This document shows positions 289-18,847 of a DNA stretch of 19,108 bases, in pieces. The stretch covers positions 1 to 19,108 of the IMG/VR virus record IMGVR_UViG_2534681697_000017. One strand, written 5' to 3'. The stretch is from a virus (taxonomy: Duplodnaviria > Heunggongvirae > Uroviricota > Caudoviricetes). The position numbers and the translations under genes were made by a program. Numbering within the stretch: the stretch's first letter is position 1; every line of letters starts with the position of its first letter. The notes below the pieces were generated by a model. It saw only the letters and a list, made by a program, of their open reading frames with translations, ran no database searches and was not told the origin of the DNA.

Positions 289-793
289 TAATCTCCAGTT
301 TTAGCCGCTCATCACTTTGTTTTCTGTCTGAGGGTTCATGCTGTACCCAGTTGTAATAACCGCTCCTGGATACACCAAATACCTGACACATCGCTTCAAT
401 GGGAAATTGTTGTCGCCATTGTTCGATTAACGCGTATTTTTCAGCGACTCCTGTGCAAAATACGCTGTTGCTTTTTTTAATATATCTCGCTCAAGGCGAG
501 CTTCATTTAACGCCTTACGCAGTTGCAGAATTTCAGATTCCAGTTCAGCCACCGTGCGGGAACCAGGAGTACCGAGCCCTTTTCTGGCGGCGGTAACCCA
601 TTGTCCTAAAGTGCCTTCAGGAAGGGATAATCGGGAAGCGCCTTCACTGATCGAAAGTTGATTTTCAAGAACCGTTCTGACAGCTTCGGCTTTGAACTCT
701 TTAGAGTAACGTTGGGTTTTTCTGCTCATTATTAGCTCCTTCTGATGCCATTCTATTTCAGGAAGGAGTGTCCGTTAAACTCAGGCTACCTCA
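289..793 (-). mobile_element. IS600 (IS3 family), truncated copy: left inverted repeat, orfA and the first ~45 codons of orfB
   Basis: The reverse complement of 289-793 matches 2416-2920 of the complete IS600 copy at every position I compared by eye (terminal TGAGGTAGCCTGAGTTTAACGG through CTGGAGATTA); identity stops at 288/289. Confidence 0.85.
427..729 (-). CDS. IS600 OrfA (IS3-family transposase HTH subunit)
   Basis: 100-aa ORF identical in protein sequence to the orfA at 2480-2782; recognised as IS600 OrfA from memory. Confidence 0.85.
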   Translation of the reverse strand: MSRKTQRYSKEFKAEAVRTVLENQLSISEGASRLSLPEGTLGQWVTAARKGLGTPGSRTVAELESEILQLRKALNEARLERDILKKATAYFAQESLKNTR

Positions 794-2479: not shown

Positions 2480-2782
2480 ATGAGCAGAAAAACCCAACGT
2501 TACTCTAAAGAGTTCAAAGCCGAAGCTGTCAGAACGGTTCTTGAAAATCAACTTTCGATCAGTGAAGGCGCTTCCCGATTATCCCTTCCTGAAGGCACTT
2601 TAGGACAATGGGTTACCGCCGCCAGAAAAGGGCTCGGTACTCCTGGTTCCCGCACGGTGGCTGAACTGGAATCTGAAATTCTGCAACTGCGTAAGGCGTT
2701 AAATGAAGCTCGCCTTGAGCGAGATATATTAAAAAAAGCAACAGCGTATTTTGCACAGGAGTCGCTGAAAAATACGCGTTAA
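2480..2782 (+). CDS. IS600 OrfA
   Basis: 100-aa ORF with GGAG upstream; sequence recognised as IS600 OrfA (MSRKTQRYSKEFKAEAVR...). Confidence 0.9.
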   Translation: MSRKTQRYSKEFKAEAVRTVLENQLSISEGASRLSLPEGTLGQWVTAARKGLGTPGSRTVAELESEILQLRKALNEARLERDILKKATAYFAQESLKNTR

Positions 2783-2817
2783 TCGAACAATGGCGACAAC
2801 AATTTCCCATTGAAGCG

Positions 2818-3636
2818 ATGTGTCAGGTATTTGGTGTATCCAGGAGCGGTTATTACAACTGGGTACAGCATGAACCCTCAGACAGAAAACAAAGTGATGA
2901 GCGGCTAAAACTGGAGATTAAGGTGGCACATATCCGCACTCGCGAAACATATGGAACCCGGCGGCTCCAGACGGAGCTGGCAGAGAATGGCATCATCGTT
3001 GGTCGTGACCGACTGGCACGTCTTCGTAAGGAGCTAAGGCTACGCTGTAAGCAGAAACGCAAGTTCAGAGCGACTACGAACCCGAACCACAATCTGCCAG
3101 TTGCGCCAAATCTGCTGAACCAGACGTTCGCTCCTACAGCACCAAATCAGGTCTGGGTGGCGGACCTGACGTATGTTGCCACACAGGAGGGATGGTTGTA
3201 CCTCGCTGGCATCAAAGATGTTTATACGTGCGAAATTGTCGGCTACGCCATGGGAGAGCGCATGACAAAAGAGCTGACAGGTAAAGCCCTGTTTATGGCG
3301 CTCAGGAGCCAGCGCCCACCTGCCGGGCTAATCCACCACTCTGATCGAGGTTCACAGTACTGCGCATACGATTACCGGGTCATACAGGAGCAGTTTGGTC
3401 TGAAAACATCAATGTCGCGTAAAGGTAACTGTTACGACAACGCTCCGATGGAAAGCTTCTGGGGAACGCTGAAAAATGAGAGCCTGAGCCACTATCGTTT
3501 TAATAACCGGGATGAAGCCATCTCAGTAATACGGGAATACATTGAGATTTTCTACAATCGTCAGCGTCGTCACTCTCGTCTGGGGAATATCTCCCCGGCA
3601 GCCTTCAGGGAAAAATATCATCAGATGGCTGCTTAA
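2818..3636 (+). CDS. IS600 OrfB (DDE integrase-type transposase); normally made as an OrfAB fusion by -1 frameshifting
   Basis: 272-aa ORF with an rve-type DDE core (HSDRGSQY...CYDNAPMESFWGTLK). Coordinates are from the first in-frame ATG; the frame is open upstream into the orfA overlap. Confidence 0.9.
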   Translation: MCQVFGVSRSGYYNWVQHEPSDRKQSDERLKLEIKVAHIRTRETYGTRRLQTELAENGIIVGRDRLARLRKELRLRCKQKRKFRATTNPNHNLPVAPNLLNQTFAPTAPNQVWVADLTYVATQEGWLYLAGIKDVYTCEIVGYAMGERMTKELTGKALFMALRSQRPPAGLIHHSDRGSQYCAYDYRVIQEQFGLKTSMSRKGNCYDNAPMESFWGTLKNESLSHYRFNNRDEAISVIREYIEIFYNRQRRHSRLGNISPAAFREKYHQMAA

Positions 3637-4083: not shown

Positions 4084-4551
4084 TTATTTCAGGCACTGAG
4101 TCCTGATGTACTCCTGAAGCATTCTCAATGCTGTCTGGTCGCTGATGATTCCGTCCCGGATACCGAGAACGTTTCGTCCAGCAACTGGAGAGAGTTCGAC
4201 GGTGGCATCATTGCCCATGCCGGAGGCGCTGGAGGTTTCGGCTGAGGATGGCACAGGGCATTTTCCTTTGACGAGCACCCGACCACCATTATCAAGCTTG
4301 CGCCGAAGAGCATCATTTTCAGCTTTCGCATCAGCTAACTCCTTCGTGTATTTAGCATCGAGTGCATCAGCAGCACGCTGGCGCTGCTGCATGTCAGTAA
4401 TGGTTGCGTTCGCCAGCTTCAGTTCTCTTGCGTTTTTGTCGCGCTGCTCTTTGTAGGTAATGGCGTTATCACGGTAATGATTAACAGCCCATGACAGGCG
4501 GACGATGATGCAGATAACCAGAGCGGAGATAATCGCGGTGACTCTGCTCAT
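4084..4551 (-). CDS. Rz: Rz, inner-membrane spanin (i-spanin)
   Basis: N-terminal transmembrane segment then a charged coiled-coil region; sits immediately after the endolysin with the start overlapping its stop; contains an embedded lipoprotein ORF in the +1 frame. Start taken as ATG 4551 (the listed ORF begins at GTG 4563). Confidence 0.8.
4125..4331 (-). CDS. Rz1: Rz1, outer-membrane lipoprotein spanin (o-spanin), embedded in Rz
   Basis: [19 protein letters not shown] lipoprotein signal followed by a proline-rich segment ([11 protein letters not shown]), entirely inside Rz in another frame: the classic Rz/Rz1 arrangement. Confidence 0.7.
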
Positions 4552-5021
4552 TGCTGCCCCCACAAACAGACTTCACGCTCAATCTCACGACGGGTCATCA
4601 GCCCTTTCCATTGCTTACCGCCAGCATATGTCCAGCGACGTAGCTGGTCACATGCGCCTTTGATATCGCCCTGGTTTATTTTGCGAAGAAGCGTCGATGT
4701 TCTGAAATTGCCAGCGCCCACGTTGTAAACGAACGAGTAAAGAGCGCCGCGCGTTGTTTCCGGTATATCGACTTTGATGTACGGGTTAATTTGTCTGGCG
4801 ACAGTGGCAAGGTCTTTATTCAGGAGAGCTTTGCATTCTGCTTCGGTATACGTTTTACCAGGCATGATGTCTTTTCCGGTGTGTCCGTGACATACAGTCC
4901 ATACACCAATGATATCTTTGTATGGTATGTAGCTGACACCTTCCAGACCATCGTTACCACCTGGGCCAGTGATTAACACAGATGCTATAGCAAACAGCCC
5001 CGCCACCAATAGCAACTGCAA
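4548..5021 (-). CDS. R: Phage lysozyme (P21 R-like SAR endolysin); N-terminus disrupted by a frameshift, listed ORF starts at a TTG
   Basis: [15 protein letters not shown]...[15 protein letters not shown] matches P21-type endolysin as recalled. The expected ATG (5046-5044, overlapping the S stop as TAATG) opens a different frame that stops after 30 codons ([30 protein letters not shown]). See findings. Confidence 0.7.
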
Positions 5022-5045
5022 CAGCCTTGCGTAATGATGGCGACA

Positions 5046-5261
5046 TTATTCACCTCTCGCAGCCTTACGCTTATCTTCTCTTATTTTGAAATACAGATTC
5101 GTCAGATAAGTCAGAAGCCCCAGAAGCAGACTTCCCAGCACACCAATCGCAGCCCACTGTGATGGACTGACCTGATCCAACCACTGCAAAAACCAGTAGC
5201 CGGCACTGCCGGCGGAGGTGCCGTAGGCAATGCCCGTTGAAATTTTATCCATGGATTTCAT
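5046..5261 (-). CDS. S: Class II holin, P21 S-like pinholin with dual-start motif
   Basis: [71 protein letters not shown] is near-identical to S21 as I recall it; Met1-Lys-Ser-Met4 dual start; strong GGAGGTGAGG ribosome-binding site upstream. Confidence 0.85.
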
Positions 5262-5550
5262 AGCCTCACCTCCGCAAATAACGGATGGCGTAGTTCTTAT
5301 ATTGGGAAGGGAAAAAGAAGGCCGCAGCGTAACTGTCACTGATGAATTCAGGATAGCCAGTGGCTACGGCTCAGTTTTGGTTGTGCTGTTGCTGGGCGGC
5401 GATGACGCCTGTACGCATTTGGTGATCCGGTTCTGCTTCCGGCATTCGCTTAATTCAGCACAACGGAAAGAGCATTTATGACTCGCATCGCGGGAAAAAG
5501 CCCACGGTAGAGAGTCGAACTCTACAAATGCTCTTACCTGTTGTGAAAAC

Positions 5551-5580
5551 AAAAAAGCCCCGACGTTTCTGCCGAGGCTC
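5551..5580 (-). terminator. Intrinsic terminator upstream of the lysis cassette (tR'-like position)
   Basis: Minus-strand AGCCUCGGC-AGAAAC-GUCGGGGCU forms a 9-bp stem (two G-U pairs) followed by UUUUUU. Confidence 0.5.
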
Positions 5581-5812
5581 TTACCTAATCTAGCCAGTAT
5601 GTCGACCCTAAATATTATCGACGACCGGGGAAATCAGGATTTCAATTTCACTGCTCAGTTCGCTTTTGCTCCGAGCATATGCAAAAAATACCACTTTCAT
5701 TTCTCGGAAGCAACGCATTTACAAAATTATTTCAGTTCAGGCCGCTATTAATGGAAATTCTTTATCCAATTCTCGTTTCATTGCATAAAACATTTCTGAC
5801 TCCAGCACTTTC

Positions 5813-6263
5813 TCACACCACTCGCTTACGACAATACTGAATATCAGCACCTGTTATATAAGAAATAATCCTGGCTATATCTTGCGTGCAATTGCGATTG
5901 CAATATCGCTTAATAGCTACATCGCGGACAGGGCTTTCACGGTGAAACGTCTTAACCATGTCCGGCATCCCACTGAGCAGACGTGAGCGTTCCGCACGAG
6001 ATACATGGTAAATAGCGATCACGCTCCCTGATATAAGCATTTACTGCCTGCTGTGCCTGCTTCAGCCAGTAACTGCGGGGTTTTAAATCGCGGCGTCTTG
6101 CTTTCAGCTTGTCTGCCTGTTCTTTTGCTGAGGCTATAGCCTTTTCTTTTCTGACCAGTTCCAGTGCACACTGACCACAACAAACTTTCTGATATGAGCG
6201 GAACGGCACAAACTGATTGCCACACACTTTGCAGTTTTTGGGTTTACGCTGTTTCATTATCAC
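5813..6263 (-). pseudogene. ninG: ninG (rap)-like recombination protein gene, disrupted
   Basis: The first 103 codons (5952-6263) match lambda NinG as recalled ([43 protein letters not shown]) and then hit a stop; the downstream sequence continues only in another frame. Confidence 0.6.
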
Positions 6264-6264
6264 C

Positions 6265-6714
6265 TCAGAAAAACGACAGCAGGCGGTTATTCAGTTCAGG
6301 ATTGTTTGTACGCCCAAACACGTGTTTCAGCGCGGCATTAATCATTGCGTTGTAGCAACGTTCAAACTCATCCTGATCCATATTCGCGTAACTCAGGCTT
6401 TTTGCCCGATATCTCACCTCACCTCTTATGGTTGTGACCACATCATAGAACCCGGCAAGAATTGTCAGATTTTTACGAAACTCATCAAACTGCGTCGCTT
6501 CATCAGAGAATTCGTATCCGGCGTGTTCAGCACACCAGTACTGAAAGCAAAAATTAAGAAAAGCGAACATCTTCCGGTGAAAAGATGGATTACGGGTAAG
6601 ATTTGCTTCCAGCGTGTACAGCTCACCGTTTTTAAATTTTGCCAGTCGGGGTAAATCGCGTTCATACGCCGGTATAAATACGCCATTAGCAGCCTTGATC
6701 ATCTCCAGCTCCAT
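6265..6714 (-). CDS. Conserved phage protein of unknown function (149 aa)
   Basis: Intact ORF whose ATG overlaps the upstream stop (ATGA at 6711-6714); lies between the primase gene and ninG. Family assignment not secure; it does not resemble Q. Confidence 0.6.
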
Positions 6715-7673
6715 CAGGCAGCCTCCGCTTTGAATTTGCGCGTCAACACATGTTCACGGGCCTCACACCCCTGAATGAGCATGTCGTTAAAATCCGGCAA
6801 GTCAGGCCAGCGAATACTGACCTTCTCCACGTCATTACGACTCATGAGATTCTTATGCCCACATTTAAAGGCAGCCGCCAGACCTGCACCATGCTCGTCA
6901 TTGTCAGCAAAGATAATCAGGTGATTAACGCCAGGTGGAGCAATAAACTTCTCCATAAAGCCAGAATTCATTGTTGACCATACGTTGCAGCGAAATATCT
7001 GGCGACATGACAGCGCCGTCTCAATCCCCTCTGCAATTCCCAGAGTTGATGACACCGGATACAGGCGTATCGCTACAGATTTGGCATATTCCAGATAAGA
7101 TTGCTCCTGTAATGCCAGCGCTTTTTTGGCAGCCTCCACACCCGCTTTGCGATCGCCATCCAGCAAGGTACGGTGCAGGTAACACAGCATGCCTTTATCA
7201 TCTGTTACGATTGAATAAATCGCCTGGTACTCCCGTCCATTAGCAATCTGCCGATTACAAAAACGAACGGATTCTGCCGGTAACTGGAGGATCCCCCTGT
7301 TTTTCAGATATGCCTCTCCTGAAGTTCCGCGCAAACATGGCAATCTGGCAAATTTAGCTGTAACCCTCTCCCGGTTTCTGGTTGTGTCAGTCACAACAGG
7401 TCTTGCGTGCTCTTTTTTCCAAGTATTACCAATCAGTCGATCGATTTCATCGCACAGAGTCACCCAAGGCTTACCCGTTGCCAGTTGCAACAACTGCATC
7501 CCATCGCCATGACCACAGACACATATCCACGATCCTGTTCCGCAACGGAATTTACCTTTAGCGCCGCAAATGGGGCAGGTGCCCTTGTAATGTTTACCGC
7601 CAGTGACAGGAGGCATACCGTAGTATTCAAAAATCCGCTCCCAGTGCCCCTTTGCTGCCTCCTTAGTTTGCAT
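6714..7673 (-). CDS. Zinc-ribbon plus Toprim domain protein (phage DNA primase-like)
   Basis: N-terminal Cys cluster (CPICGAKGKFRC...WICVCGHGD) and a Toprim-like acidic motif (LIIFADNDEHGAG); GGAGG ribosome-binding site; coupled to the helicase gene upstream. Confidence 0.75.
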   Translation of the reverse strand: MQTKEAAKGHWERIFEYYGMPPVTGGKHYKGTCPICGAKGKFRCGTGSWICVCGHGDGMQLLQLATGKPWVTLCDEIDRLIGNTWKKEHARPVVTDTTRNRERVTAKFARLPCLRGTSGEAYLKNRGILQLPAESVRFCNRQIANGREYQAIYSIVTDDKGMLCYLHRTLLDGDRKAGVEAAKKALALQEQSYLEYAKSVAIRLYPVSSTLGIAEGIETALSCRQIFRCNVWSTMNSGFMEKFIAPPGVNHLIIFADNDEHGAGLAAAFKCGHKNLMSRNDVEKVSIRWPDLPDFNDMLIQGCEAREHVLTRKFKAEAA

Positions 7674-9183
7674 GCTGGCCTCCGGTCATGGCTTTCTTGC
7701 GCCCTTTGGCATAGGCAATGATCTTTGACTTGATGAAATTGTGCACTTCAACCGAGGTTTGCAGCGGCGCGTTACTGAAGCCTTTAGGCCACACCCCGAA
7801 CTTCTCTTTGTAGGTATGAGCGCACCATCCGTCACTCAGTGGCTTACCTGTCGCGTTGCGGTAATTCTGATAGCCCTTGATCTCACTCCACCACCGCTGT
7901 TTTTCCTCGCGGCTGTATTCGCGTTTCCCTTTGTTTACGCGAGAGAGTTTTCGATCGCGGTCTGTTGCCACATCATCGCCACCAAGAGGACGAAACCCAC
8001 ATTTGGGACACATGTGTACACCAGCAGGCTTCATGAAGTGGCATTTGGGGCATTCTCTGGGAAGTTTTTCAGCTTTAACCTCGCCACCGCCAGCAGACGC
8101 TTTCATTCCGTCATTTTTGCCCGGCAGTTCGTCATACTCGATATCCTCGGGGAAACCCAGCCGATGAACCGTGCCAGAATGGTCGAAAATCAACGCACGT
8201 TGTTTACCTGGGGCTGTACGTAACGCTCTACCTATGCACTGCAACCAACGGATTTCTGATTTTGTCGGACGGGCATAGATCAGGCAGCGAACATCGCTGT
8301 CAAATCCCGCAACCAGTACGCCGACGTTGACAATTATTTTGGTCACGCCCTCTTCAAAACGGCGAATGATGTCCTGTCGTTCATCATGGAGGGTATCTGC
8401 CATCATCACCTCTGCGCCAATACCGGCCTGTAAAAACTCACGGGTAACAAAATTCGCATGCGCAACATTCACACAGAAGCAGATCGTCGGCAAATCCTCA
8501 CCATTCTCAAGCCAGTTGCGAACGATATCGCCAACCAGATCCGAACTCCCCATGATGGATGCGAGCTGCTCCTCGTTGTAATCCCGTCCAAATACGGTGT
8601 TACTGGTTTTTACGCCAGCCAGATCAGGCATTGAGGGGGCAAAAAACTCATAATCGCTCAGATCACCACGCTGAATAAGTTCACGAATCGTTGTAGGCTT
8701 GATCAGGCATTCGTAGTACTTCCCCATCCAGGCTGCGAACGGGGTACCGGAAAGTCCAAGAACCCTGATGTCTCTGTCCCGGATAACCTCAAGTAACGCA
8801 CGACGCTTCATGTGTGCTTCATCGATGATCAGCAGATCGATGTTGTCAGGAAACTCACGACGGATCAGCGTGTCGGCACTGGCAATCTGAATCAGTCGTG
8901 ACGGGTCATAGTTAGGGTGATCACGCCATACAAAACTGATTTCTTCCCACGGCAAACCGTATTCGGTGAAACGTTCCGCTGTCTGGTTCAGCAGGATGGT
9001 GTACGGACAGACAAACATCACTCGCATACCACGTTCAACCATTCCGGCGGTGACGAATGCTGCAAGACCAGTTTTGCCAGAGCCAGTGGGTGCATACATC
9101 AGGTACGTGCGATGCTGTTTCCACTGGTGCCGCAGCTGGTTTAAACCGCGCTCCTGAGCAAAGTTTGGGATTATTTTCAGCAT
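7663..9183 (-). CDS. Superfamily-2 DEAD/DEAH-box helicase with C-terminal zinc ribbon (phage replicative helicase)
   Basis: Walker A (APTGSGKT), DEAH box (LLIIDEAHM), C-terminal CPKCHFMKP...CPKCGF. 506 aa. Confidence 0.8.
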   Translation of the reverse strand: MLKIIPNFAQERGLNQLRHQWKQHRTYLMYAPTGSGKTGLAAFVTAGMVERGMRVMFVCPYTILLNQTAERFTEYGLPWEEISFVWRDHPNYDPSRLIQIASADTLIRREFPDNIDLLIIDEAHMKRRALLEVIRDRDIRVLGLSGTPFAAWMGKYYECLIKPTTIRELIQRGDLSDYEFFAPSMPDLAGVKTSNTVFGRDYNEEQLASIMGSSDLVGDIVRNWLENGEDLPTICFCVNVAHANFVTREFLQAGIGAEVMMADTLHDERQDIIRRFEEGVTKIIVNVGVLVAGFDSDVRCLIYARPTKSEIRWLQCIGRALRTAPGKQRALIFDHSGTVHRLGFPEDIEYDELPGKNDGMKASAGGGEVKAEKLPRECPKCHFMKPAGVHMCPKCGFRPLGGDDVATDRDRKLSRVNKGKREYSREEKQRWWSEIKGYQNYRNATGKPLSDGWCAHTYKEKFGVWPKGFSNAPLQTSVEVHNFIKSKIIAYAKGRKKAMTGGQHAN

Positions 9184-9563
9184 GACGCCCCCTTGCTACG
9201 TGATTTACCCGTTGCCGGGATCACGTCGATCTCATCGCTAACGTATTGATCCGGATTACGTGAACAGCGCAGAAGCACGATACCAGGAATGCCGTATAGC
9301 TTGAGTCTGCGCAGTTTCAGTATTGAACGTGCCCGTGGTGACGCTCTGTCCACCTCGATCGCGCACCGTTCACCAGATGGGGCAACGACCATGATATCGA
9401 CGAATCCGCGCTTACCGTTGCCCATATCAACCAGATAATTACGTTCGATCGCCAGTCCGGCATCACGCAATTTGGCAGCCAGCACATAATCAAACGTGAC
9501 CTTGTCTTTTCCGGTGTAGAATTTGTTTCCGAGCAGGCTGATAACCACATGTTTGATGAACAT
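9177..9563 (-). CDS. Hypothetical protein, possibly nuclease-fold (VRR-NUC/PD-(D/E)xK-like), coupled to the helicase
   Basis: 128-aa ORF whose stop overlaps the helicase start. The GFVDIMVV...AIEVD segment loosely resembles a PD-(D/E)xK core; weak inference. Confidence 0.45.
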   Translation of the reverse strand: MFIKHVVISLLGNKFYTGKDKVTFDYVLAAKLRDAGLAIERNYLVDMGNGKRGFVDIMVVAPSGERCAIEVDRASPRARSILKLRRLKLYGIPGIVLLRCSRNPDQYVSDEIDVIPATGKSRSKGASC

Positions 9564-9785
9564 GGTACTATTTCCACCGCAATAGTTGGCATAATAATAA
9601 TTTCGCCAGAAACCATCTCACCCTATACAGTGATCTACCTAACCTATGGAGCTGCCTTCCTCTGGTAGTGCCCTTACAGGCACGGATGTTACAGATCTGC
9701 CCCCTTACCCCCTTCTTAGTAAAATTTCAAGCGCAATGATTTCATGAGAAATCATTTCACAAAAAAATAATCACCTTGATGAGAT

Positions 9786-10067
9786 CTATTCCTTCCGTAT
9801 CGCTACTGGCGAAAGCATCCAGCCACGGCTGGCTCTCGCGTACTTCTGGACATACACCCGTAACCGGGTGTTGGCACTCCGTCTTGCCCTGTTGCCCTTC
9901 CTGAACGATACAGGCTCCTTGTCCCACTCTTCCTGGTACACTCTCGCGTACTCTGCTGCAATTTTTACCCTGGTGGTCGGGTCTAGCTGTAACAATTGCT
10001 CCTGTATCCAGTCCCGATCAGCATCACAGTACTGATCGGGCATAACCGTTTTGATTTGCCTGTTCAC
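9786..10067 (-). CDS. Hypothetical protein (93 aa), first gene after cro-like
   Basis: GTG start at 10067 preceded by GGAGGTG at 5-nt spacing; an alternative ATG lies at 10043. No recognisable domain. Confidence 0.5.
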   Translation of the reverse strand: MNRQIKTVMPDQYCDADRDWIQEQLLQLDPTTRVKIAAEYARVYQEEWDKEPVSFRKGNRARRSANTRLRVYVQKYARASRGWMLSPVAIRKE

Positions 10068-10089
10068 TCACACCTCCGATGGAGGGTTA

Positions 10090-10329
10090 TCAGGCTGTTT
10101 GCCTTACATGAAGCGGAATACCATCTTCCATGTTTAGGTAGTCATGCGGGTTTAGTTCATGGGGAGTTACATTCCAGTCTGTAGCTTTTGCCCATTCAAT
10201 GGCTTTCCGCCCCTGAGGCATGTATCTCCCTGTAATAACCCCACTGACAAATCCCTGAGAAACTCCAACAATCGCCGCAAAATCGGCTTGTCTGATAGAG
10301 CTTTGTCTCAAGTACTCGTCAAGAGTCAT
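10090..10329 (-). CDS. Cro-like HTH regulator (Cro/YdaS-type)
   Basis: Transcribed divergently from cI; helix-turn-helix SIRQADFAAIVGVSQGFVSGVITGR; GGGAGG ribosome-binding site 7 nt upstream of the ATG. Confidence 0.65.
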   Translation of the reverse strand: MTLDEYLRQSSIRQADFAAIVGVSQGFVSGVITGRYMPQGRKAIEWAKATDWNVTPHELNPHDYLNMEDGIPLHVRQTA

Positions 10330-10434
10330 AGAGATCCTCCCATTTCAATTTTCCGATATTAGCTTACCTGATTTAAATGTCAATAGGCTAGCTATTTGAT
10401 AAATATTTGTGTTGCTAATAAAATTGGAGGCACT
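10330..10434. promoter_or_regulatory. cI/cro divergent intergenic control region (oR-like, pR/pRM-like)
   Basis: 105-bp AT-rich spacer between divergent repressor genes; contains an imperfect dyad TAGCTTACC...GGCTAGCTA. Operators are not individually resolved. Confidence 0.5.
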
Positions 10435-11154
10435 ATGACGAAGAAAATTACAATTACTGACAAAGACATCCAGAACGCTGAACGACTGCGCAAAATCTGG
10501 GATGAAAAACGGAAACAGCTATCCCTAAGCCAGGAAAAAGCCGCAGATATCCTCGGCTTCAAAACGCAGGGGGCTGTTAGTCAGTTATTGAACGCAAAAA
10601 TTGCGTTAAATACTGAAAATACCCTTAAGTTTGCGGCTTTATTACAGGTTCCTGCGGAAGAAATTAATCCAGATCTGAGTGATTTGTTACGCAGTATTCG
10701 TACCCACACACCGGGAAACAGGCGTAACCTGTTCGAGAAATATTACGAATATCCGTTACTCTCCTGCGTACAGGCTGGAGCTTTCTCAATGGATGATTTT
10801 TCGTACACCGCAAAGGATGCGATTAAGTGGATCTCCACCACCACAAAAGCCAGTGACAGGTCGTTCTGGCTGGAGGTCAAGGGGCATTCAATGACCGCGC
10901 CGCAGGGTGGTAAACCCAGTTTCCCCGAAGGGATGCTGATACTCGTTGACCCTGAGCGGGAGATTGAGGATGGCGATTTTTGCGTGGCCCGAATGAATGG
11001 CGATGAATTCACCTTCAAACGATTCATTCGTGAGAGCGGTAAAGCGTACCTGGAGCCACTCAACCCACGATTCGACATGATTGAGTGTAACGAAAACTGC
11101 CAGTTTGTCGGAAAGGTCATAAAGTCGCAGTGGAATGATGAGACTTTTGATTGA
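10435..11154 (+). CDS. cI: Lambda-family CI repressor (HTH plus S24 LexA-like autopeptidase domain)
   Basis: C-terminal half ([32 protein letters not shown]...[11 protein letters not shown]...[14 protein letters not shown]) closely resembles the lambda CI C-terminal domain as recalled, including an Ala-Gly site (VQAGAF). N-terminal HTH is divergent. Start at ATG 10435 with GGAGG upstream. Confidence 0.9.
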
Positions 11155-11275
11155 ACTCACAGGATGATATCAATAACCTTGCAGGGAGGCTATTTTATTT
11201 CCTTTTTCAGCGAAAAATCTCCGAGAACCCTCGCCCAATGCGGGCGGGGAGCAGTCGCAATCAAGTGAGCCATAA

Positions 11276-11446
11276 ATGAACAAAGACAAATCCTTGACAC
11301 AACAAGTGGAAGAAATACTTAGCAAGCAAAAAGTTAGCGAGCAAGGAAAAATGATTCAATCATTAAAGAACATGGGCTTGATCAACAAGCCTGTTTTTAC
11401 TTTGGCTTATGGACCAGATATTACAACCTGCCAAATGCACCAATAA
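11276..11446 (+). CDS. Small ORF (56 aa) downstream of cI, unknown function
   Basis: ATG 11276 to TAA 11444-11446, immediately followed by a strong terminator; weak ribosome-binding site; below the size cutoff of the supplied ORF track. Confidence 0.3.
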   Translation: MNKDKSLTQQVEEILSKQKVSEQGKMIQSLKNMGLINKPVFTLAYGPDITTCQMHQ

Positions 11447-11478
11447 CAAAACCCGGCCTTGGTGCCGGGTTTTGTTTG
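11447..11478. terminator. Bidirectional intrinsic terminator between the cI and hicAB transcription units
   Basis: AAAACCCGGC-CTTGGT-GCCGGGTTTT perfect 10-bp stem, flanked by T-runs on both strands. Confidence 0.7.
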
Positions 11479-11560
11479 CCTCCTGCTCACCCCACCATTT
11501 ACCAGTGCGCCGTAAATTCCCCATTCTTCGGCGGTGAGGATGTCAAAGACGAAGGGAACA

Positions 11561-11905
11561 TTAAGCCCCTGTGTGATGGTTGACTTCTTTTTCCAGCGCC
11601 TTATTAACAAAGGCGTTCAGTGATAAATCTTCTTCCATCGCCATTTCAGCGACCCGACGATGCAGTTCTGGATCAAGTCTGACGTTAAACACACCTTTAA
11701 ACGGGGTATCAGGCTCCTTTCCATCCTCCACACAAGACTGTAAATACAGCTCAACCGATGTCTTAAACTCCTGTTCCAGTTCAGCTAATGTAGAAGCCTC
11801 ATAAGTTACCAGGTCTCGAATAAACGCCAGTTTTCCGTACAGGATATTATTTTCAAAATCTGGTTCTACTGTACCTAAATATCCTTTATATTTTAGATGA
11901 TTCAT
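11561..11905 (-). CDS. hicB: HicB-family antitoxin (HicB fold plus C-terminal ribbon-helix-helix)
   Basis: ATG overlaps the hicA stop (ATGA at 11902-11905); C-terminal ELHRRVAEMAMEEDLSLNAFVNKALEKEV is RHH-like. Confidence 0.7.
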   Translation of the reverse strand: MNHLKYKGYLGTVEPDFENNILYGKLAFIRDLVTYEASTLAELEQEFKTSVELYLQSCVEDGKEPDTPFKGVFNVRLDPELHRRVAEMAMEEDLSLNAFVNKALEKEVNHHTGA

Positions 11906-12156
11906 AATACCCCAGCCTCTTTCAGATTCTGTTTAATCGCTTTCAGCGTTCCACCTTTAATATAACTTTCTGGATGTGGGCGATGCATTAATATGGTGTG
12001 GTTGATTTCAGCATTGAAAAACCGCACTCTTGAGCCCTGCATTTCCTTTTTGACATATCCCAGAGAGGAAAACAAAACGACCAACTCATCCCATTCAAAC
12101 GTTTTTTTACTGTTTAAAAACTTTTCCAGTAGCTTATCTGCTTTCCCCATACCCAC
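11902..12156 (-). CDS. hicA: HicA-family toxin (mRNA interferase)
   Basis: GSRVRF...HRPHP...IKGGTLKAIKQNLKEAG matches the HicA consensus. The listed start is GTG 12156; an alternative ATG lies at 12150. Confidence 0.7.
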   Translation of the reverse strand: MGMGKADKLLEKFLNSKKTFEWDELVVLFSSLGYVKKEMQGSRVRFFNAEINHTILMHRPHPESYIKGGTLKAIKQNLKEAGVL

Positions 12157-12305
12157 ATAATCTCATCTTCGCTACATTGCAACTAATTATAGTTACAGGC
12201 GATGTTTTTGTCAAAAGCCACCAAGCCCGCTGGGTTCTCTTTGACTGTTCACTGCTTTTCTTAGTGTTATCAGGGGGTTCCCTCACACCAAATCTAACAC
12301 AGAGT

Positions 12306-12332
12306 AACCGGCCTCAGCGCCGGTTTTTCTTT
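12306..12332 (+). terminator. Plus-strand intrinsic terminator upstream of the putative early-left promoter
   Basis: AACCGGC-CTCAGC-GCCGGTT stem followed by TTTTTCTTT; no U-run on the opposite strand. Confidence 0.55.
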
Positions 12333-12443
12333 GCGCATCCTCCATAACTCACCACCTGCATTATCCTCGCTTATATTTTTTACATAAATAAATTAATCTA
12401 AAAATCAATCACATAGATTAAAATTAAATTATCAGTCTTACTA

Positions 12444-12473
12444 TTAACTGCGATCAGTTGCGCTTATTATATT
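12444..12473 (+). promoter_or_regulatory. Candidate early-left (pL-like) promoter
   Basis: TTAACT, an 18-nt spacer, then TATATT, within a very AT-rich block; read by eye only. Confidence 0.3.
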
Positions 12474-12495
12474 TTACCCAAGCCAGAAACATCGC

Positions 12496-12565
12496 GCCCT
12501 GACACAGGGCTACATAAATCAGTCGTACGGCGCGACTTAACCCGCCGCAAAATGCTCTTTAACAA
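12496..12565 (+). promoter_or_regulatory. Antitermination-like element: boxB-like hairpin (12496-12510) plus rrn-type boxA (12553-12565)
   Basis: GCCCTGACACAGGGC has the same stem as lambda nut boxB (GCCCU...AGGGC) with a different loop; TGCTCTTTAACAA equals the E. coli rrn boxA consensus as recalled. Confidence 0.4.
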
Positions 12566-12854
12566 TCTGGAGCTTTACAGCGTCAATGACCTGTTTAGAC
12601 CCCTACACGTAAACGTGCTGTATCATCGGGTGCGATCCGGTCGATGAGAGAGTATCCCCGCGCGAGAGCGAGAACGGCGTGAGAACGGGCAACACTGGCA
12701 GGAAGTTGGCGCTGACCAATACAGGGAATGTTTTGGGGTGCAGGCGGCACCGCCAAAGCATTTCCGAGAAAGGACGATATTGACTGCGTGTGATGTCGGG
12801 GCTATATTTGGCGAACACCTCATAAAACGGGTGCCGGGATTAGCACCCCGAAAG

Positions 12855-12893
12855 TTACTCGAGCGCATAACCGCGCTGAAGCGGTTTTTTTAT
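12855..12893 (+). terminator. Putative intrinsic terminator in the leader just upstream of the Rha-like gene
   Basis: CGCATAA-CCGCGCTGAAGCGG-TTTTTTTATGCG: inner hairpin (ACCGC/GCGGT) plus T7 run, enclosed by an outer CGCATAA/TTATGCG stem. Confidence 0.4.
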
Positions 12894-13057
12894 GCGTAAT
12901 GCACAGCCACATTCAAATTATGGTGAGGCGTGCGGGGCAGCCGCAAGGCTGGCCGGGTTCTCGAGTGACCGGTAGTGCTAACCCTGTGCGTCTCACCACC
13001 CATGAGATTAGCACCTCTGGTGGTGAGTTAATTAACTTATCACTTGAGGATGTCATT

Positions 13058-13435
13058 ATGGCTACTACCCTTTCTCACCCTGACGTAACCATCGAAAATG
13101 GTCGCGCCGTCACTACTTCTATTTCGATTGCTGAGTTTTTTGGCAAGCAGCATCACCATGTTGTTCAGAAAATAGAATCCCTCGAATGCTCTGAGCAATT
13201 CTTAACCCGCAACTTTTCGCGGGTTAAATTCGAACACCGAGGCAATACCTATAACGCCTACCAAATCACCAAAAACGGCTTCGTTTTTCTGGTGATGGGC
13301 TTCACCGGCAAAAAAGCAGCTGCATTCAAGGAAGCCTACATTGCTGAATTCGATCGCATGGAAAAACAACTATGGGAACAGAAACAACTGGCCCTGTCTT
13401 CTCCTGCGATGAATATCAATTTCCCTTTATCGTAG
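13058..13435 (+). CDS. Rha-family phage regulatory protein (125 aa)
   Basis: VTTSISIAEFFGKQHHHVVQKIESL resembles the Phage_pRha motif. Start at ATG 13058 with GAGGA 7 nt upstream; the longer ORF from 12899 is rejected. Confidence 0.6.
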   Translation: MATTLSHPDVTIENGRAVTTSISIAEFFGKQHHHVVQKIESLECSEQFLTRNFSRVKFEHRGNTYNAYQITKNGFVFLVMGFTGKKAAAFKEAYIAEFDRMEKQLWEQKQLALSSPAMNINFPLS

Positions 13436-13462
13436 TTTTCAGAGCATCACCCCTATGCCACG

Positions 13463-13696
13463 ATGAACTATGTTGATAGAAATACATTGCAGCTTGATAC
13501 CTCCGTCTTATTCGACATGCCAAGCCCTGCAATGCGCATATTTAATGAATTACGTCGTAACGGCTATAACGTCGATGCGGCTGTCGCCGAATTTAACGCC
13601 TTCAAGCATCTGACGGAAGAAATGCGCCGTAAATTGCTGGATATTTCCCGCACATCGGAAAAGTCTTCCCGCTTTGGTTTCAACGTTAATCTTTAA
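13463..13696 (+). CDS. Hypothetical protein (77 aa)
   Basis: ORF in the early-left operon; weak ribosome-binding site. Confidence 0.45.
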   Translation: MNYVDRNTLQLDTSVLFDMPSPAMRIFNELRRNGYNVDAAVAEFNAFKHLTEEMRRKLLDISRTSEKSSRFGFNVNL

Positions 13697-13766
13697 TTAA
13701 CCCCATCCCCGATCACATATCGGGGATTAAATTAAATATCTGGATTAATTAACCGGAGGATTTGTC

Positions 13767-13979
13767 ATGCTCAAACCTCACTACGGAACCGCATTAGTTT
13801 CTCGCGAGGACGTTAAACCCGGTACAGCAATTCTTTACAACGGGCGTTATTACATGGCGTCAGCTAACGTTAATAATGCACTTTACGCACATTCACTGAT
13901 TGAAAAAATCCGCATTATTTCAGATGCAATCGAAGTTTACCTGAACCATAAAGGCCAACCGTTAATCTCACCAGCCTGA
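13767..13979 (+). CDS. Hypothetical protein (70 aa)
   Basis: ATG preceded by CCGGAGGA. Confidence 0.55.
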   Translation: MLKPHYGTALVSREDVKPGTAILYNGRYYMASANVNNALYAHSLIEKIRIISDAIEVYLNHKGQPLISPA

Positions 13980-13990
13980 AAGGAAATATC

Positions 13991-14272
13991 ATGCTCAATC
14001 AAAAAATTAATATCAATGTAAAAAACGTCATAACGCCAGCAGAAACGATAATGGGAGAAGTTTTTATGGATGATAAAATCATCGCCTATTTTGTCGTCCT
14101 GCCTGATGAGGCTATTTCTGTTATTGATACGGAAGGCAATGTTATGTTTATCGCGGAACATCCAGAAGACATCGCATTACAGGCCGCTGCATATTTCTTC
14201 GCTAAAGAGCAGGAGGAAGAATGTAACTGCCCTGTCTGTCAGCTTTCCCGACAAATTAATTTAATGCATTAA
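13991..14272 (+). CDS. Hypothetical protein (93 aa), acidic with C-terminal CxxC
   Basis: ATG preceded by AAAGGAAA. Confidence 0.55.
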   Translation: MLNQKININVKNVITPAETIMGEVFMDDKIIAYFVVLPDEAISVIDTEGNVMFIAEHPEDIALQAAAYFFAKEQEEECNCPVCQLSRQINLMH

Positions 14273-14292
14273 CCGGAATCAGGAGTTCCGCC

Positions 14293-14574
14293 ATGAACGC
14301 ATACCTCACCTGCGACCGCATAGAGGAGCGTCGCTGGGTTAATCAGCATATTCAGGATGAAAAGGATAAATGGATTGATGATCGGGCGCAGGAGCTTATC
14401 AGCATGTTCCCCGATAAACCATTGCTTATGAGCAGCCTTTTTTTACCCAAAGAAGCCCAACTGGCACTCACTGGCGAAAAAGCTGAAGAGGCGTACAACG
14501 ATTATATCTCAGCGATCGCCTATGCTCGGGCGGAAGAAGAATGGGAGAGAAAATTCTCCCCCTGTCCTTTCTGA
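14293..14574 (+). CDS. Hypothetical protein (93 aa)
   Basis: ATG preceded by CAGGAG. Confidence 0.55.
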   Translation: MNAYLTCDRIEERRWVNQHIQDEKDKWIDDRAQELISMFPDKPLLMSSLFLPKEAQLALTGEKAEEAYNDYISAIAYARAEEEWERKFSPCPF

Positions 14575-14591
14575 TTTTCAGGACCAAAAAA

Positions 14592-15541
14592 ATGTTCGAT
14601 ATCGTTGAATTTGTTAAGCAGCAGGAGCGCTTTTTCTGCGAGGCATTAACTGAACCGACGCTGACATGGGCGAAGGAAAGTCAGTTTGCAATTCAGCAAT
14701 TCCAGAAAAATGCCTTTCTGGCTGACACAGCACGGGCAAATCTGCCCAGCGCACAGAACGCTATCATCAATGTTGCCGCCATCGGCATAACCCTGAACCC
14801 GGCCAGCAAGCTGGCGTATCTGGTCCCACGAAAAAAGGCTGTATGCCTGGATATCAGTTATATGGGGCTTCTGCATCTGGCACAGGTCACAGGAGCCATT
14901 CAGTGGGGGCAATGCAAACTTGTTTACGAGAAGGACATTTACGAGTCCAACGGTATTGACTGCGCCCCCACGCACAAATACAACCCATTCGTAGACAGGG
15001 GCGCACGCATTGGCGGTTATTGTGTCGTAAAAACATCCGAAGGCGACTATCTGACCGAAGAGATGAGCAACAGGGAAATCGAGGTCATCAGGGCGTGCAG
15101 CAAAGCCGGAAATAACGGAGGAAGTAGCCCGTGGGATAGTTTCCCCGATGAAATGGCCAGAAAAGCCATTGTAAGCGCGCCAGCAAATACTGGCCCCGTC
15201 GCGATCGCCTGGATACAGCTATCGACTACCTGAACACTCAGGCCGGTGAAGGTATCATCCTGAATGCTGATCACATCCCTGAGCGTGACGTCACTCCCGC
15301 ATCAGATGAGATTATCAATGAGATCACTCAGGCAATCACCGAAATTAACAAGACATGGGATGACCTGCTTCCCTTATGTTCCAAAACATTCCGTCGCACG
15401 ATTGCATCACATGAATATCTCAGTCAGGAAGAAGCTGTCAAAACGCTTGATTTTGTCAAAAAGAAAGCTGCCAGAAACAAGGCCACGGCGGAAGCGAAAA
15501 TTCACGCCACCACGGAAAATAGCAGCGAGGCCGTGTCATGA
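14592..15541 (+). pseudogene. recT: RecT-family single-strand annealing protein, interrupted by a -1 frameshift near 15172
   Basis: The N-terminal 213 codons (14592-15233) are RecT-like (AIGITLNPASKLAYLVPRKK...). The expected C-terminal continuation (KRASKYWPRRDRLDTAIDYLN...SEAVS) is read in the -1 frame from about 15173 to the TGA at 15539-15541, which overlaps the exonuclease start. Confidence 0.7.
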
Positions 15542-16227
15542 CACCAGAAATTATTCTCCAGCGAACTGGCGTGGATATTACCAGCCTCGACCAGGGCGAT
15601 GATGGATGGCACAAGCTGAGACTCGGTGTTATCACTGCTTCAGAAGTTCACAATGTGATAGCAAAGCCACGTTCCGGCAGCAAATGGCCTGATACAAAAA
15701 TCTCATACTTCCACACCCTGCTGGCTGAAGTTTGTACCGGCGTGGCACCGGAAGTTAACGCTAAGTCGCTCGCATGGGGAAAGCAATACGAAGATGATGC
15801 CCGTGCCATCTTCGAATTTATCGCGGATGTTACCGTCTCGGAAACGCCAATAATTTTTCGTGACGAAAGCATGCGCACCGCCTGCTCTCCCGACGGTTTA
15901 TGCAGCGACGGTAACGGCCTTGAGCTTAAATGCCCCTTCACTTCCCGCGACTTCATGAAGTTCCGGCTTGGCGGCTTTGACGCTATCAAGCCTGCTTACA
16001 TGGCCCAAGTGCAATTCAGCATGTGGGTTACAGACAAGGACGCCTGGTACTTCGCCAACTACGACCCACGCATGAAGCGTGAAGGCCTGCATTATGTCGT
16101 GGTCGAGCGGGATGAAAAGTACATGACGAGTTTTGATGAGATGGTGCCGGAGTTCATCGACAAAATGGACGAAGCACTGGCGGAAATTGGTTTTGTATTT
16201 GGAGAACAATGGGGGGTTAATAACTAA
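15538..16227 (+). CDS. YqaJ-type (lambda-exo-like) phage exonuclease, PD-(D/E)xK
   Basis: 229-aa ORF with motifs SPDGL...GLELKCP...AYMAQVQ; paired with recT upstream; GCGAGG ribosome-binding site. Confidence 0.8.
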
Positions 16228-17174
16228 TGGATGAAGTGATTTTTACTTATAACGAAGAATCAGCACTGACCGCCGGACAAGGTGGTTTTATTACCGAAAC
16301 GGGTGCGCATATCATTAACATCACCGAAGCAGAACTCAAGCAATCAGAAAAAGGTGCCCGATTCATTGAGTTTTCTGGAGAATCCGACGACGGACGGAAA
16401 ATCCAATATCTCAGTGTTTGTGTTCAGAAGAATGACGGCACTGAAAATAAATTTGGGGCGAGCATTATTCACGCCATGATGGGATGCACAGGAATTGGGC
16501 AGTTAACGCAACATATGGTTTCCGTCAGTGAATCAAAACAAATATCTGAATGCTATGTGGCGCAAAGGAGGCAAACAGTGAGCGAAATTGACTATCAGGC
16601 ACTGCGTGAAAAGGCAGAGAAAGCAACGTGGGGTGTGTGGTCGCTCGAATATGGAGAGGAGAAACTTGATGCTGATGATGCGCTAATTCACCGTGAAGTT
16701 GTTGGATATCTTCCTATTTGCAGAATTGAAGGAGCGCATCCTGAAAGCGGTTTCGATGAAGATTTCCAAATGGAACAGCAGGCCAATGCTGAATTCATCG
16801 CCGCAGCCAATCCGGCTACTGTGCTGACACTGCTGAGCGAGCTGGAAACAGCAAAAAAGCGCATAGCAGAACTGGAAGCCAAACCTGTAAGCCAGACTTA
16901 CAAGTTGAATGAGATGTCGGGCAACTCTCCGGTAATTCCGGATGGTTGGATAAGCTGTAGTGATCGAATGCCTGAAAAGGGCCAGAACGTACTTATTTCG
17001 GTGAATTTCGATAGCTCTCTGGTTGAACCGCTAATATGCTCCGCACGCTATACCGGAGGTACATTCCGGCGTGGAGATGTAACGGTTAAGCCAGGTAATG
17101 GTATTGAACAGGCAACCCACTGGATAGACTGGCCCCCTGAATCTCCAGACAACCAGTATCACTTAAATAAGTGA
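16227..17174 (+). CDS. Ead/Ea22-like protein with C-terminal DUF551-like domain; last ~15 codons and stop supplied by the IS2 terminus
   Basis: [22 protein letters not shown] is Ea22-like; the C-terminal ...ATHW resembles the DUF551 end. The reading frame continues into the IS2 left inverted repeat ([16 protein letters not shown]). Confidence 0.6.
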
Positions 17175-17357
17175 TAGTCTTAATACTAGTTTTTAGACTA
17201 GTCATTGGAGAACAGATGATTGATGTCTTAGGGCCGGAGAAACGCAGACGGCGTACCACACAGGAAAAGATCGCAATTGTTCAGCAGAGCTTTGAACCGG
17301 GGATGACGGTCTCCCTGAACCGCCCCGGGTTTCCTGGAGAGTGTTTTATCTGTGAAC

Positions 17358-18240
<883 letters not shown>

Positions 18241-18244
<4 letters not shown>

Positions 18245-18567
18245 TTTTTCCAGAGGCGGTCGAACTCCGCCTTCGCAAAATAAGCGGAAGCCTGGCGAAG
18301 GATATCGTTACTGCGGCGCAGTTCACGATTTTCACGCTCCAGCTCTTTCAGACGCTGACGTTCAGCGGTGGTGAGCCCTCCATCACCGCCCCCGGTATCC
18401 CGCTCATGCTGGCGAACCCAGACACGCAGAGTCTCCGGCGTACAGCCAATCTTTGGAGCAATGGAACAAATTGTCGCCCATTGTGAGTCATATTCGCCCT
18501 GACTTTCCAGAACCATACGGACTGCCCGTTGACGGACTTCGGGGGAAAAACGAGTATTTTTAGTCAT
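18241..18567 (-). CDS. IS629 OrfA
   Basis: 108-aa [42 protein letters not shown]... recognised from memory. Confidence 0.9.
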
Positions 18568-18847
18568 CCTGTTTACCTCTTTCTCAGGAAGTTTAGTCTC
18601 CAGGATTCCCGGGGCGGTTCACCCTCGTTGCCCGGCAACATGGTGTAGCAGCCAGCCAGTTATTTCTCTGGCGTAAGCAATACCAGGAAGGAAGTCTTAC
18701 TGCTGTGGCCGCCGGAGAACAGGTTGTTCCTGCCTCTGAACTTGCTGCCGCCATGAAGCAGATTAAAGAACTCCAGCGCCTGCTCGGCAAGAAAACGATG
18801 GAAAATGAACTCCTCAAAGAAGCCGTTGAATATGGACGGGCAAAAAA

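Follow-up and report, generated by a model that had tools for sequence, protein, structure and literature searches.

The defective lambdoid prophages of E. coli K-12 and Shigella, such as DLP12, Qin and Rac, are riddled with IS elements and keep parts of the nin region together with an S21-type lysis cassette. Other genes have been deleted or frameshifted, as in the prophage described here. In the phage 21 antiterminator Q21, helix H2 and loops L1 and L2 of the N-terminal part make up a ring within the RNA-exit channel of RNA polymerase, the DNA-binding helix-turn-helix consists of helices H5 and H6, and the protein binds two TGAGCA direct repeats between the -35 and the -10 (PMC6606751). A preliminary description of the present locus placed no Q-type antiterminator between a ninG remnant and the holin gene. 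We consider it highly probable that this interval holds a late-regulation module of the phage 21 kind that was wrecked by prophage decay, in which a remnant of Q has been kept along with the promoter and terminator.

The window, i.e. the whole 19,108-nt stretch of DNA that was analysed, is an IS-riddled, defective lambdoid prophage remnant from Shigella. Its content is that of contig AERN01000035.1 of assembly GCA_000193915.2, which appears as Shigella boydii ATCC 9905 in a published strain table (PMC6397287). The lysis strand is the minus strand, on which a cro-like gene, a 128-aa gene, a helicase, a primase, a 149-aa gene and ninG' (the 5' half of ninG) precede the interval. After the interval, the late operon consists of the holin, the frameshifted endolysin, Rz and a KilA-N-like fragment, and is then cut by the IS600-like element of the IS3 family (Table 1). 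The endolysin had been called a pseudogene and this is borne out by R21, which aligns in two frames, -2 for residues 1-18 and -3 for residues 16-165. The 149-aa protein is a DUF1367/NinB-type recombination protein, and not an antiterminator, by its matches to Pfam DUF1367 (E = 1.3e-23) and to phrog_319, 'NinB/Orf recombination mediator' (E = 9e-62). The window has three elements or fragments of the IS3 family, two of them with the IS600 pattern of 100-aa and 272-aa ORFs. In CP026875.1, portal and terminase genes in inverted orientation come next to the IS that follows the lysis genes. The window has unrelated small genes at this position, a difference which suggests an IS-mediated rearrangement. 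The recT gene is represented by an ORF of 230 aa, which aligns to positions 28-227 of a profile with 387 positions.

Table 1. Features of the window discussed in the text, in order of position
Feature	Position	Strand	Remarks
IS3-family piece	427-729	-	
IS600-like element	2480-3636	+	IS3-family orfA and orfB, 100-aa and 272-aa; ORF sizes fit IS600
KilA-N-like fragment, 72 aa	3661-3879	-	Between Rz and the IS600-like element
Rz-type spanin, intact	4084-4563	-	Last late gene; phrog_13, E = 1e-73
SAR endolysin pseudogene	4548-5046	-	Frameshift near 4993-5000, inside the N-terminal membrane segment
Class II (S21-type) holin, intact	5046-5261	-	Dual start MKSM; 96% identity to S21 over 71 aa; holin PHROG families
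83-codon antisense ORF	5230-5481	+	First 24 residues match phrog_19985 (function unknown)
62-codon ORF, TTG start	5364-5552	-	Starts inside the terminator T-tract
Short hairpin	5507-5525	-	GTAGAG-TTCGACT-CTCTAC; -7.5 kcal/mol, z = -1.3, fold not significant
Intrinsic terminator, tR' type	5546-5582	-	Stem-loop 5553-5582, T-tract to 5546; ~100 nt downstream of the probable start
Conserved initial transcribed block	5649-5679	-	TATGCTCGGAGCAAAAGCGAACTGAGCAG, about 29 nt; nearly invariant across 56 unique loci; same block in L002-L087
GAGCA copies	5671-5667, 5656-5652	-	Downstream of the probable start
-10-like element TATGCT	5679-5674	-	Starts block TATGCTCGGAGCAAAAGCGAACTGAGCAG
Putative late promoter, PR' type	5685-5713	-	Conservation after the Q-like gene
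-10 TATTTT	5690-5685	-	
17-bp spacer	Between -35 and -10	-	Conserved GAAAT..AAGT motif (5705-5691)
-35 TTGCTT	5713-5708	-	
Remnant of Q-like antiterminator gene (phrog_753 family)	5737-5959	-	Codons 130-204 of 204; C-terminal helices including the likely helix-turn-helix
75-codon ORF	5813-6040	-	27 codons of out-of-frame ninG and 48 codons of in-frame Q remnant
5-bp deletion site	5814-5821	-	One GTGGT copy of the tandem GTGGTGTGGTGTG lost
ninG', 5' half of ninG	5952-6263	-	103 aa; ~100 native codons, then 2 foreign codons and a TAA stop
Deletion/recombination joint	5957-5960	-	Three-way alignment with ninG parent (L007) and Q parent (L003)
149-aa DUF1367/NinB-type protein	6265-6714	-	Upstream neighbour of ninG'
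LexA-like repressor gene	10396-11154	+	Immunity region
hicA/hicB toxin-antitoxin pair	11561-12156	-	Adjoins the LexA-like repressor gene, immunity region
IS3-family piece	17358-18567	-	

The ORF coordinates agree with the preliminary description in ending the ninG remnant at about 5952 and starting the holin at 5261. The ninG' product matches Pfam NinG (PF05766) only over positions 1-111 of 193, and in a tblastn search with a 187-aa NinG, residues 1-100 align at 6257-5958 with 91% identity. The DNA on the late side belongs to a different gene, being 89-96% identical to the 3' end of a gene for a 204-aa 'hypothetical protein' that lies between rusA and the holin in E. coli prophages, which is the Q slot. 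By tblastn, residues 130-177 of the 204-aa protein fall at 5959-5816 (98% identity), and a change of frame places residues 178-204 at 5820-5740 (96% identity). When corrected for the frameshift, the 74-aa remnant matches phrog_753 (E = 5e-18) from position 115 to position 186 of the 189-position profile, covering the last 38% of it. The 5-bp loss shifts the frame of the remnant and creates the TGA that ends the ORF at 5813-6040. It cuts the remnant inside its last helix, the likely recognition helix, and the invariant W178 is lost. From the PHROG cross-match and the helices of the predicted model, the remnant appears to correspond to the helix-turn-helix end of Q21, with the ring-forming N-terminal two thirds missing.

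The 75-codon ORF had been described as the out-of-frame tail of ninG and not Q-like, which is correct for codons 1-27 only. ATG 5959 is in frame with ATG 6040, hence the ORF continues into Q codons. Codons 28-75 (5959-5816) are 98% identical to residues 130-177 of the Q-like protein, and residues 28-74 of the product match phrog_753, 'anti-termination protein Q-like' (E = 3e-11). ATG 5959, with which the Q remnant begins, overlaps the stop codon of ninG' through ATGGTTAA, where translational coupling could in principle yield a 48-aa peptide. A tblastn search of the 19.1 kb with Q proteins of the lambda, 21, 933W and 204-aa phrog_753 types returned no intact Q and nothing beyond this remnant, of which only residues 130-204 are present, split over two frames. 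The window is therefore without a functional Q, both between ninG' and the holin and elsewhere, as had been proposed, but the interval is not free of Q: it holds a truncated and frameshifted Q pseudogene at 5959-5737. The profile search of the interval that had been suggested as a check does return a Q-like match, to a frameshifted C-terminal fragment of 75 of the 204 codons and not to a working gene.

Comparison with intact relatives, also suggested earlier, has defined the endpoints of the lesion, which couples ninG codon ~101 to Q codon 130, so that ninG codons ~101-187 and Q codons 1-129 are lost. At the joint, the ninG side ends ...GGACAT and the Q-like side continues GGTTAAG. The ninG parent reads ...GGCCAT/TACCG and the Q parent ...GTGAT/GGTCAAG, and the only sequence that the parents have in common here is the dinucleotide AT (5959-5958), a 2-nt microhomology. 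Matches of the early region to E. coli and phages stop exactly at 5958, and those of the late region start exactly at 5959. No complete E. coli genome spans the joint, the 43-nt junction has no exact match in a species-representative genome collection, a look-up of the 103-aa NinG' product returned no match, and an ancestor with exactly this ninG type joined to this Q type was not recovered. Four more assemblies or sequencing runs have exactly the same junction. Two of these were aligned, including the complete genome CP026875.1, and they carry both the 5-bp deletion and the frameshift of the endolysin with base-for-base identity; the lesions are therefore fixed in the lineage rather than errors of assembly.

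The ancestor would have had ninG and, after it, the 204-aa Q-like antiterminator, probably with one or more small nin genes between them, followed by its cognate late promoter, a promoter-proximal pause element, a terminator and the lysis genes. One illegitimate joining across the 2-nt microhomology would have cost ninG its 3' half and Q its first 129 codons, together with whatever lay between them (about 1.0-1.9 kb if this was a simple deletion), and a later 5-bp slippage deletion would have frameshifted what remained of Q. A simple deletion of this size is plausible since 31 of the 85 loci that carry this Q type have ninG upstream of it, at a distance of 364-1206 bp. A different route to the same functional outcome, which we hold possible but on the whole unlikely, is illegitimate recombination between two resident prophages, of which one would have contributed an early region like that of Stx phages and the other this type of Q together with S21-type lysis genes. 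At 5958-18622, the early region is indeed 93-95% identical to Stx-phage-type prophages, and in L007, the one relative (91% identical) that was looked at closely, the genes after ninG are ninH, a Q of the PF06530 type and tRNA genes; the exact break of the E. coli matches at 5958/5959, and the lack of a complete E. coli genome spanning the joint, also fit two parents. However, lambdoid phages are mosaic, this Q type is found together with ninG in the 31 of 85 loci, for example in UPF_BP1, and a 2-nt microhomology is compatible with either route.

Whether by one route or the other, the reading of the interval as a wrecked late-regulation module depends on the nature of the 204-aa family, for which PHROG provides the label 'anti-termination protein Q-like' as an annotation. 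Relatives of the protein are encoded on 339 viral contigs. In functional phages the gene always lies between nin/rusA genes and lysis genes, directly upstream of the late promoter, with examples just before the lysis or late genes in Salmonella phage UPF_BP1 (P22-like), E. coli phage PhiR5_2, Cronobacter phage ENT47670 and, more distantly, ST64B (Sb49). The NCBI pipeline names this Q-slot family 'hypothetical protein' (L002:3614-4228, L095:617-1231, L096:632-1234), and in the records of two phages, Pantoea PA-1 and Yersinia vB_YenM_29.18, it carries the label 'class II holin', apparently by mistaken annotation.

The family is without a Pfam or NCBIfam model, and neither an intact relative nor the window remnant matches PF06530 (Phage_antitermQ) at E <= 1, a model which Q21 and the 933W-type Q do match. 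The intact relative matches phrog_753 from end to end (E = 6.5e-68), and Q21 matches the same profile (E = 6e-10). A weak profile link between the family and Q21 is also given by hhalign (E = 8.6e-5). A member from a Yersinia phage (39% identical) passes the cutoff of DUF1133 (PF06576) with 25 bits against 23.1, Q21 with 22 bits falls just short of it, and the E. coli/Shigella-type 204-aa protein has no DUF1133 match at E <= 1. In a profile search of PDB sequences, only marginal matches to Q21 were obtained (E about 0.8); ERp29, a stronger match than Q21 in that search, was set aside as irrelevant. Q21 is the top structural match of the predicted structure of the intact relative by a clear margin, with Foldseek E-values that are weak (about 0.07) and a model that has low-confidence loops. 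The predicted model of intact relatives has the fold of Q21, namely a sigma-region-4-like helical bundle with a C-terminal helix-turn-helix. The link between the family and Q21 thus appears to be one of fold and not of sequence. The member from a Hafnia phage (L094:671-1297) has a non-significant match to the N-terminal domain of the anti-sigma factor RseA (E = 0.12), which echoes a published remark that helix H1 of Q21 reportedly packs like RseA on sigma region 4.

The DNA that follows the gene is conserved as well. A putative promoter is found after the Q-like gene in 56 unique loci, in which TTG and TA...T are invariant, and the block reads TTGc...cGcgAAAT..AAGTaGTA.aTTttgtgTATGCTCGGAGCAaaAGCGaAC.GAGcAG. 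It comprises a -35 of TTGnnn, a 17-bp spacer, a -10 of TAnnnT that varies only at non-critical positions, five further bases and the -10-like TATGCT. This layout is preserved in relatives with 27-63% protein identity, where the corresponding position reads [T/C]A[T/A]GCT; in the Yersinia phages this is TAAGCT, which is the sequence at the annotated pause element of phage 21. A simple consensus scan does not list the proposed promoter because its -35 matches at only 3 of 6 positions, and the transcription start, probably at about 5680, is therefore deduced from conservation. Taking TATGCT as the -10 of the promoter itself was rejected, as no -35 or extended -10 fits it, and the upstream TTGnnn/17 bp/TAnnnT pair is conserved instead, with variation only at non-critical positions. 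The initial transcribed block holds a TGCTC/GAGCA palindrome, followed 15 nt later by another GAGCA. It was also considered whether the two arms that contain GAGCA pair as an RNA hairpin; one stem position varies between T and A without compensation, hence a DNA-level element is more likely. The block may be a sigma-dependent pause and Q-loading site.

Both a terminator and a short hairpin had been reported in the interval, and both are present, the former strong (z = -4.9) and the latter weak. A terminator scan gives a 12-pair stem with a 6-nt loop followed by TTTTTTGTTTT, which folds at -18.4 kcal/mol, a value reached by 0 of 200 shuffled sequences. This is the GC-rich stem-loop and U-tract of a Rho-independent terminator, and every relative has a terminator at the equivalent place, 20-110 nt beyond the -10-like element. 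At the sequence level, the interval therefore retains a cognate promoter, a -10-like pause element and an intrinsic terminator. The sequence of the short hairpin is common to the E. coli relatives, and its loop resembles that of a tRNA T-arm at a place where phage 21 and other relatives carry tRNA genes. Scanning of 5000-6300 with ARAGORN and Rfam gave no tRNA or known RNA family, apart from a single chance snoRNA match (E = 3), and the idea of a tRNA remnant is therefore unsupported. The statement that the lysis strand has no ORF over about 40 codons here was wrong as written, given the 62-codon ORF at 5364-5552; this has no family match and starts in the T-tract, and is therefore probably not coding. 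The antisense ORF at 5230-5481 is probably non-coding too. No Q-like match was found for either of these or for the plus-strand ORFs at 5599-5751, 5666-5788 and 5679-5840.

The Q-like label of the family is thus supported by three independent lines, which are its position, its profile and fold likeness to Q21, and its cognate DNA, and its members would be expected to be true antiterminators. Curated model libraries could add the 204-aa family as a Q-type antiterminator because of its Q21-like predicted fold and the conserved late promoter module that resembles that of phage 21. It is improbable, in our view, that the family is instead some other late regulator with a sigma-region-4-like fold, such as an activator of the late promoter, in which case the remnant would be a dead activator gene. 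Q21 leads the structural matches by a clear margin, and in every relative the transcript opens with a -10-like element, as it does in phage 21, and an intrinsic terminator stands between the conserved promoter and the late genes. Such a layout of promoter, -10-like element and terminator makes sense only for antitermination.

If the 204-aa protein was the antiterminator of this prophage, RNA polymerase starting at about 5680 would stop at 5553-5582. The promoter, pause element and terminator are intact in the absence of a Q in cis, so late transcripts should end at the terminator. No antiterminator would be made in cis, and the lysis cassette, holin included, would stay silent unless a matching Q were supplied in trans. 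The proposal that late gene expression is uncoupled from early transcription was therefore overstated, as termination and silence are to be expected here rather than a new form of regulation. The outcome is ordinary prophage decay, the context of which includes the frameshifted endolysin, the IS600-like elements and the same lesions in other assemblies.

One may ask whether the surviving unit has been kept because it is useful, either as an intact Q-responsive promoter and terminator before an intact pinholin or as the source of a blocking 48-aa peptide, which we judge very improbable. Breakage affects Q and the endolysin but spares the promoter module and the holin, ATGGTTAA links the frames of ninG' and the Q remnant, and the lesions are common to several isolates. 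On this reading, and with just as little probability, the broken module would act as a sensor, its cassette being switched on by a phage of the same Q type that superinfects or is co-resident. If true, premature membrane depolarisation and early cell death would follow, a trap resembling abortive infection. A weaker variant is that the 48-aa helix-turn-helix remnant, translationally coupled at the ATG (5959) and ninG' stop, could compete for Q sites and so block such phages. However, the copies are 100% identical across isolates and therefore give no sign of selection, the remnant is cut inside the likely recognition helix with loss of the invariant W178, and the IS insertions and frameshifted endolysin point to plain decay.

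That Q is wholly absent, the interval being terminator and non-coding DNA and the 75-codon ORF merely out-of-frame ninG, is hardly credible, for although the window has no intact Q and Pfam and NCBIfam find nothing in the 75-codon ORF or the intact relative, codons 28-75 of that ORF match the Q-slot protein and phrog_753 as given above and identity to the 3' end of the Q-like gene begins exactly at 5959, which already refutes this detail. Decay of a phage 21-kind module, our preferred reading, has little weight beyond annotation, in which the interval is now corrected to a truncated Q pseudogene with its cognate late promoter and terminator, and exact lesion coordinates are now given for the cryptic prophage of Shigella boydii.

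Compared with phage 21, the protein of the window family is larger, with 204 aa against the 162 aa of Q21 (PDB 6P18, 6JNX), and the two have 10-14% identical residues in structural alignments. Both have a CR(K/R)(R/E)V motif in the likely recognition helix. The annotated PR' of phage 21 has the same geometry and layout as the window promoter, and its pause element is annotated at the equivalent place, with the sequence TAAGCTG from the alignment. The subsites differ in position: the TGAGCA of Q21 lies between the -35 and -10, whereas the GAGCA copies of the window family lie in the transcribed block, and TGAGCA repeats are absent between the -35 and -10 of the window, where the spacer is CCGAGAAATGAAAGTGG. 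Unlike the phage 21 system, the window copy holds only the last 75 codons of its Q gene, and these are frameshifted. Among defective prophages, DLP12 and Qin retain intact Q homologues (quuD and quuQ, respectively), in contrast to the truncated Q of the prophage in the window.
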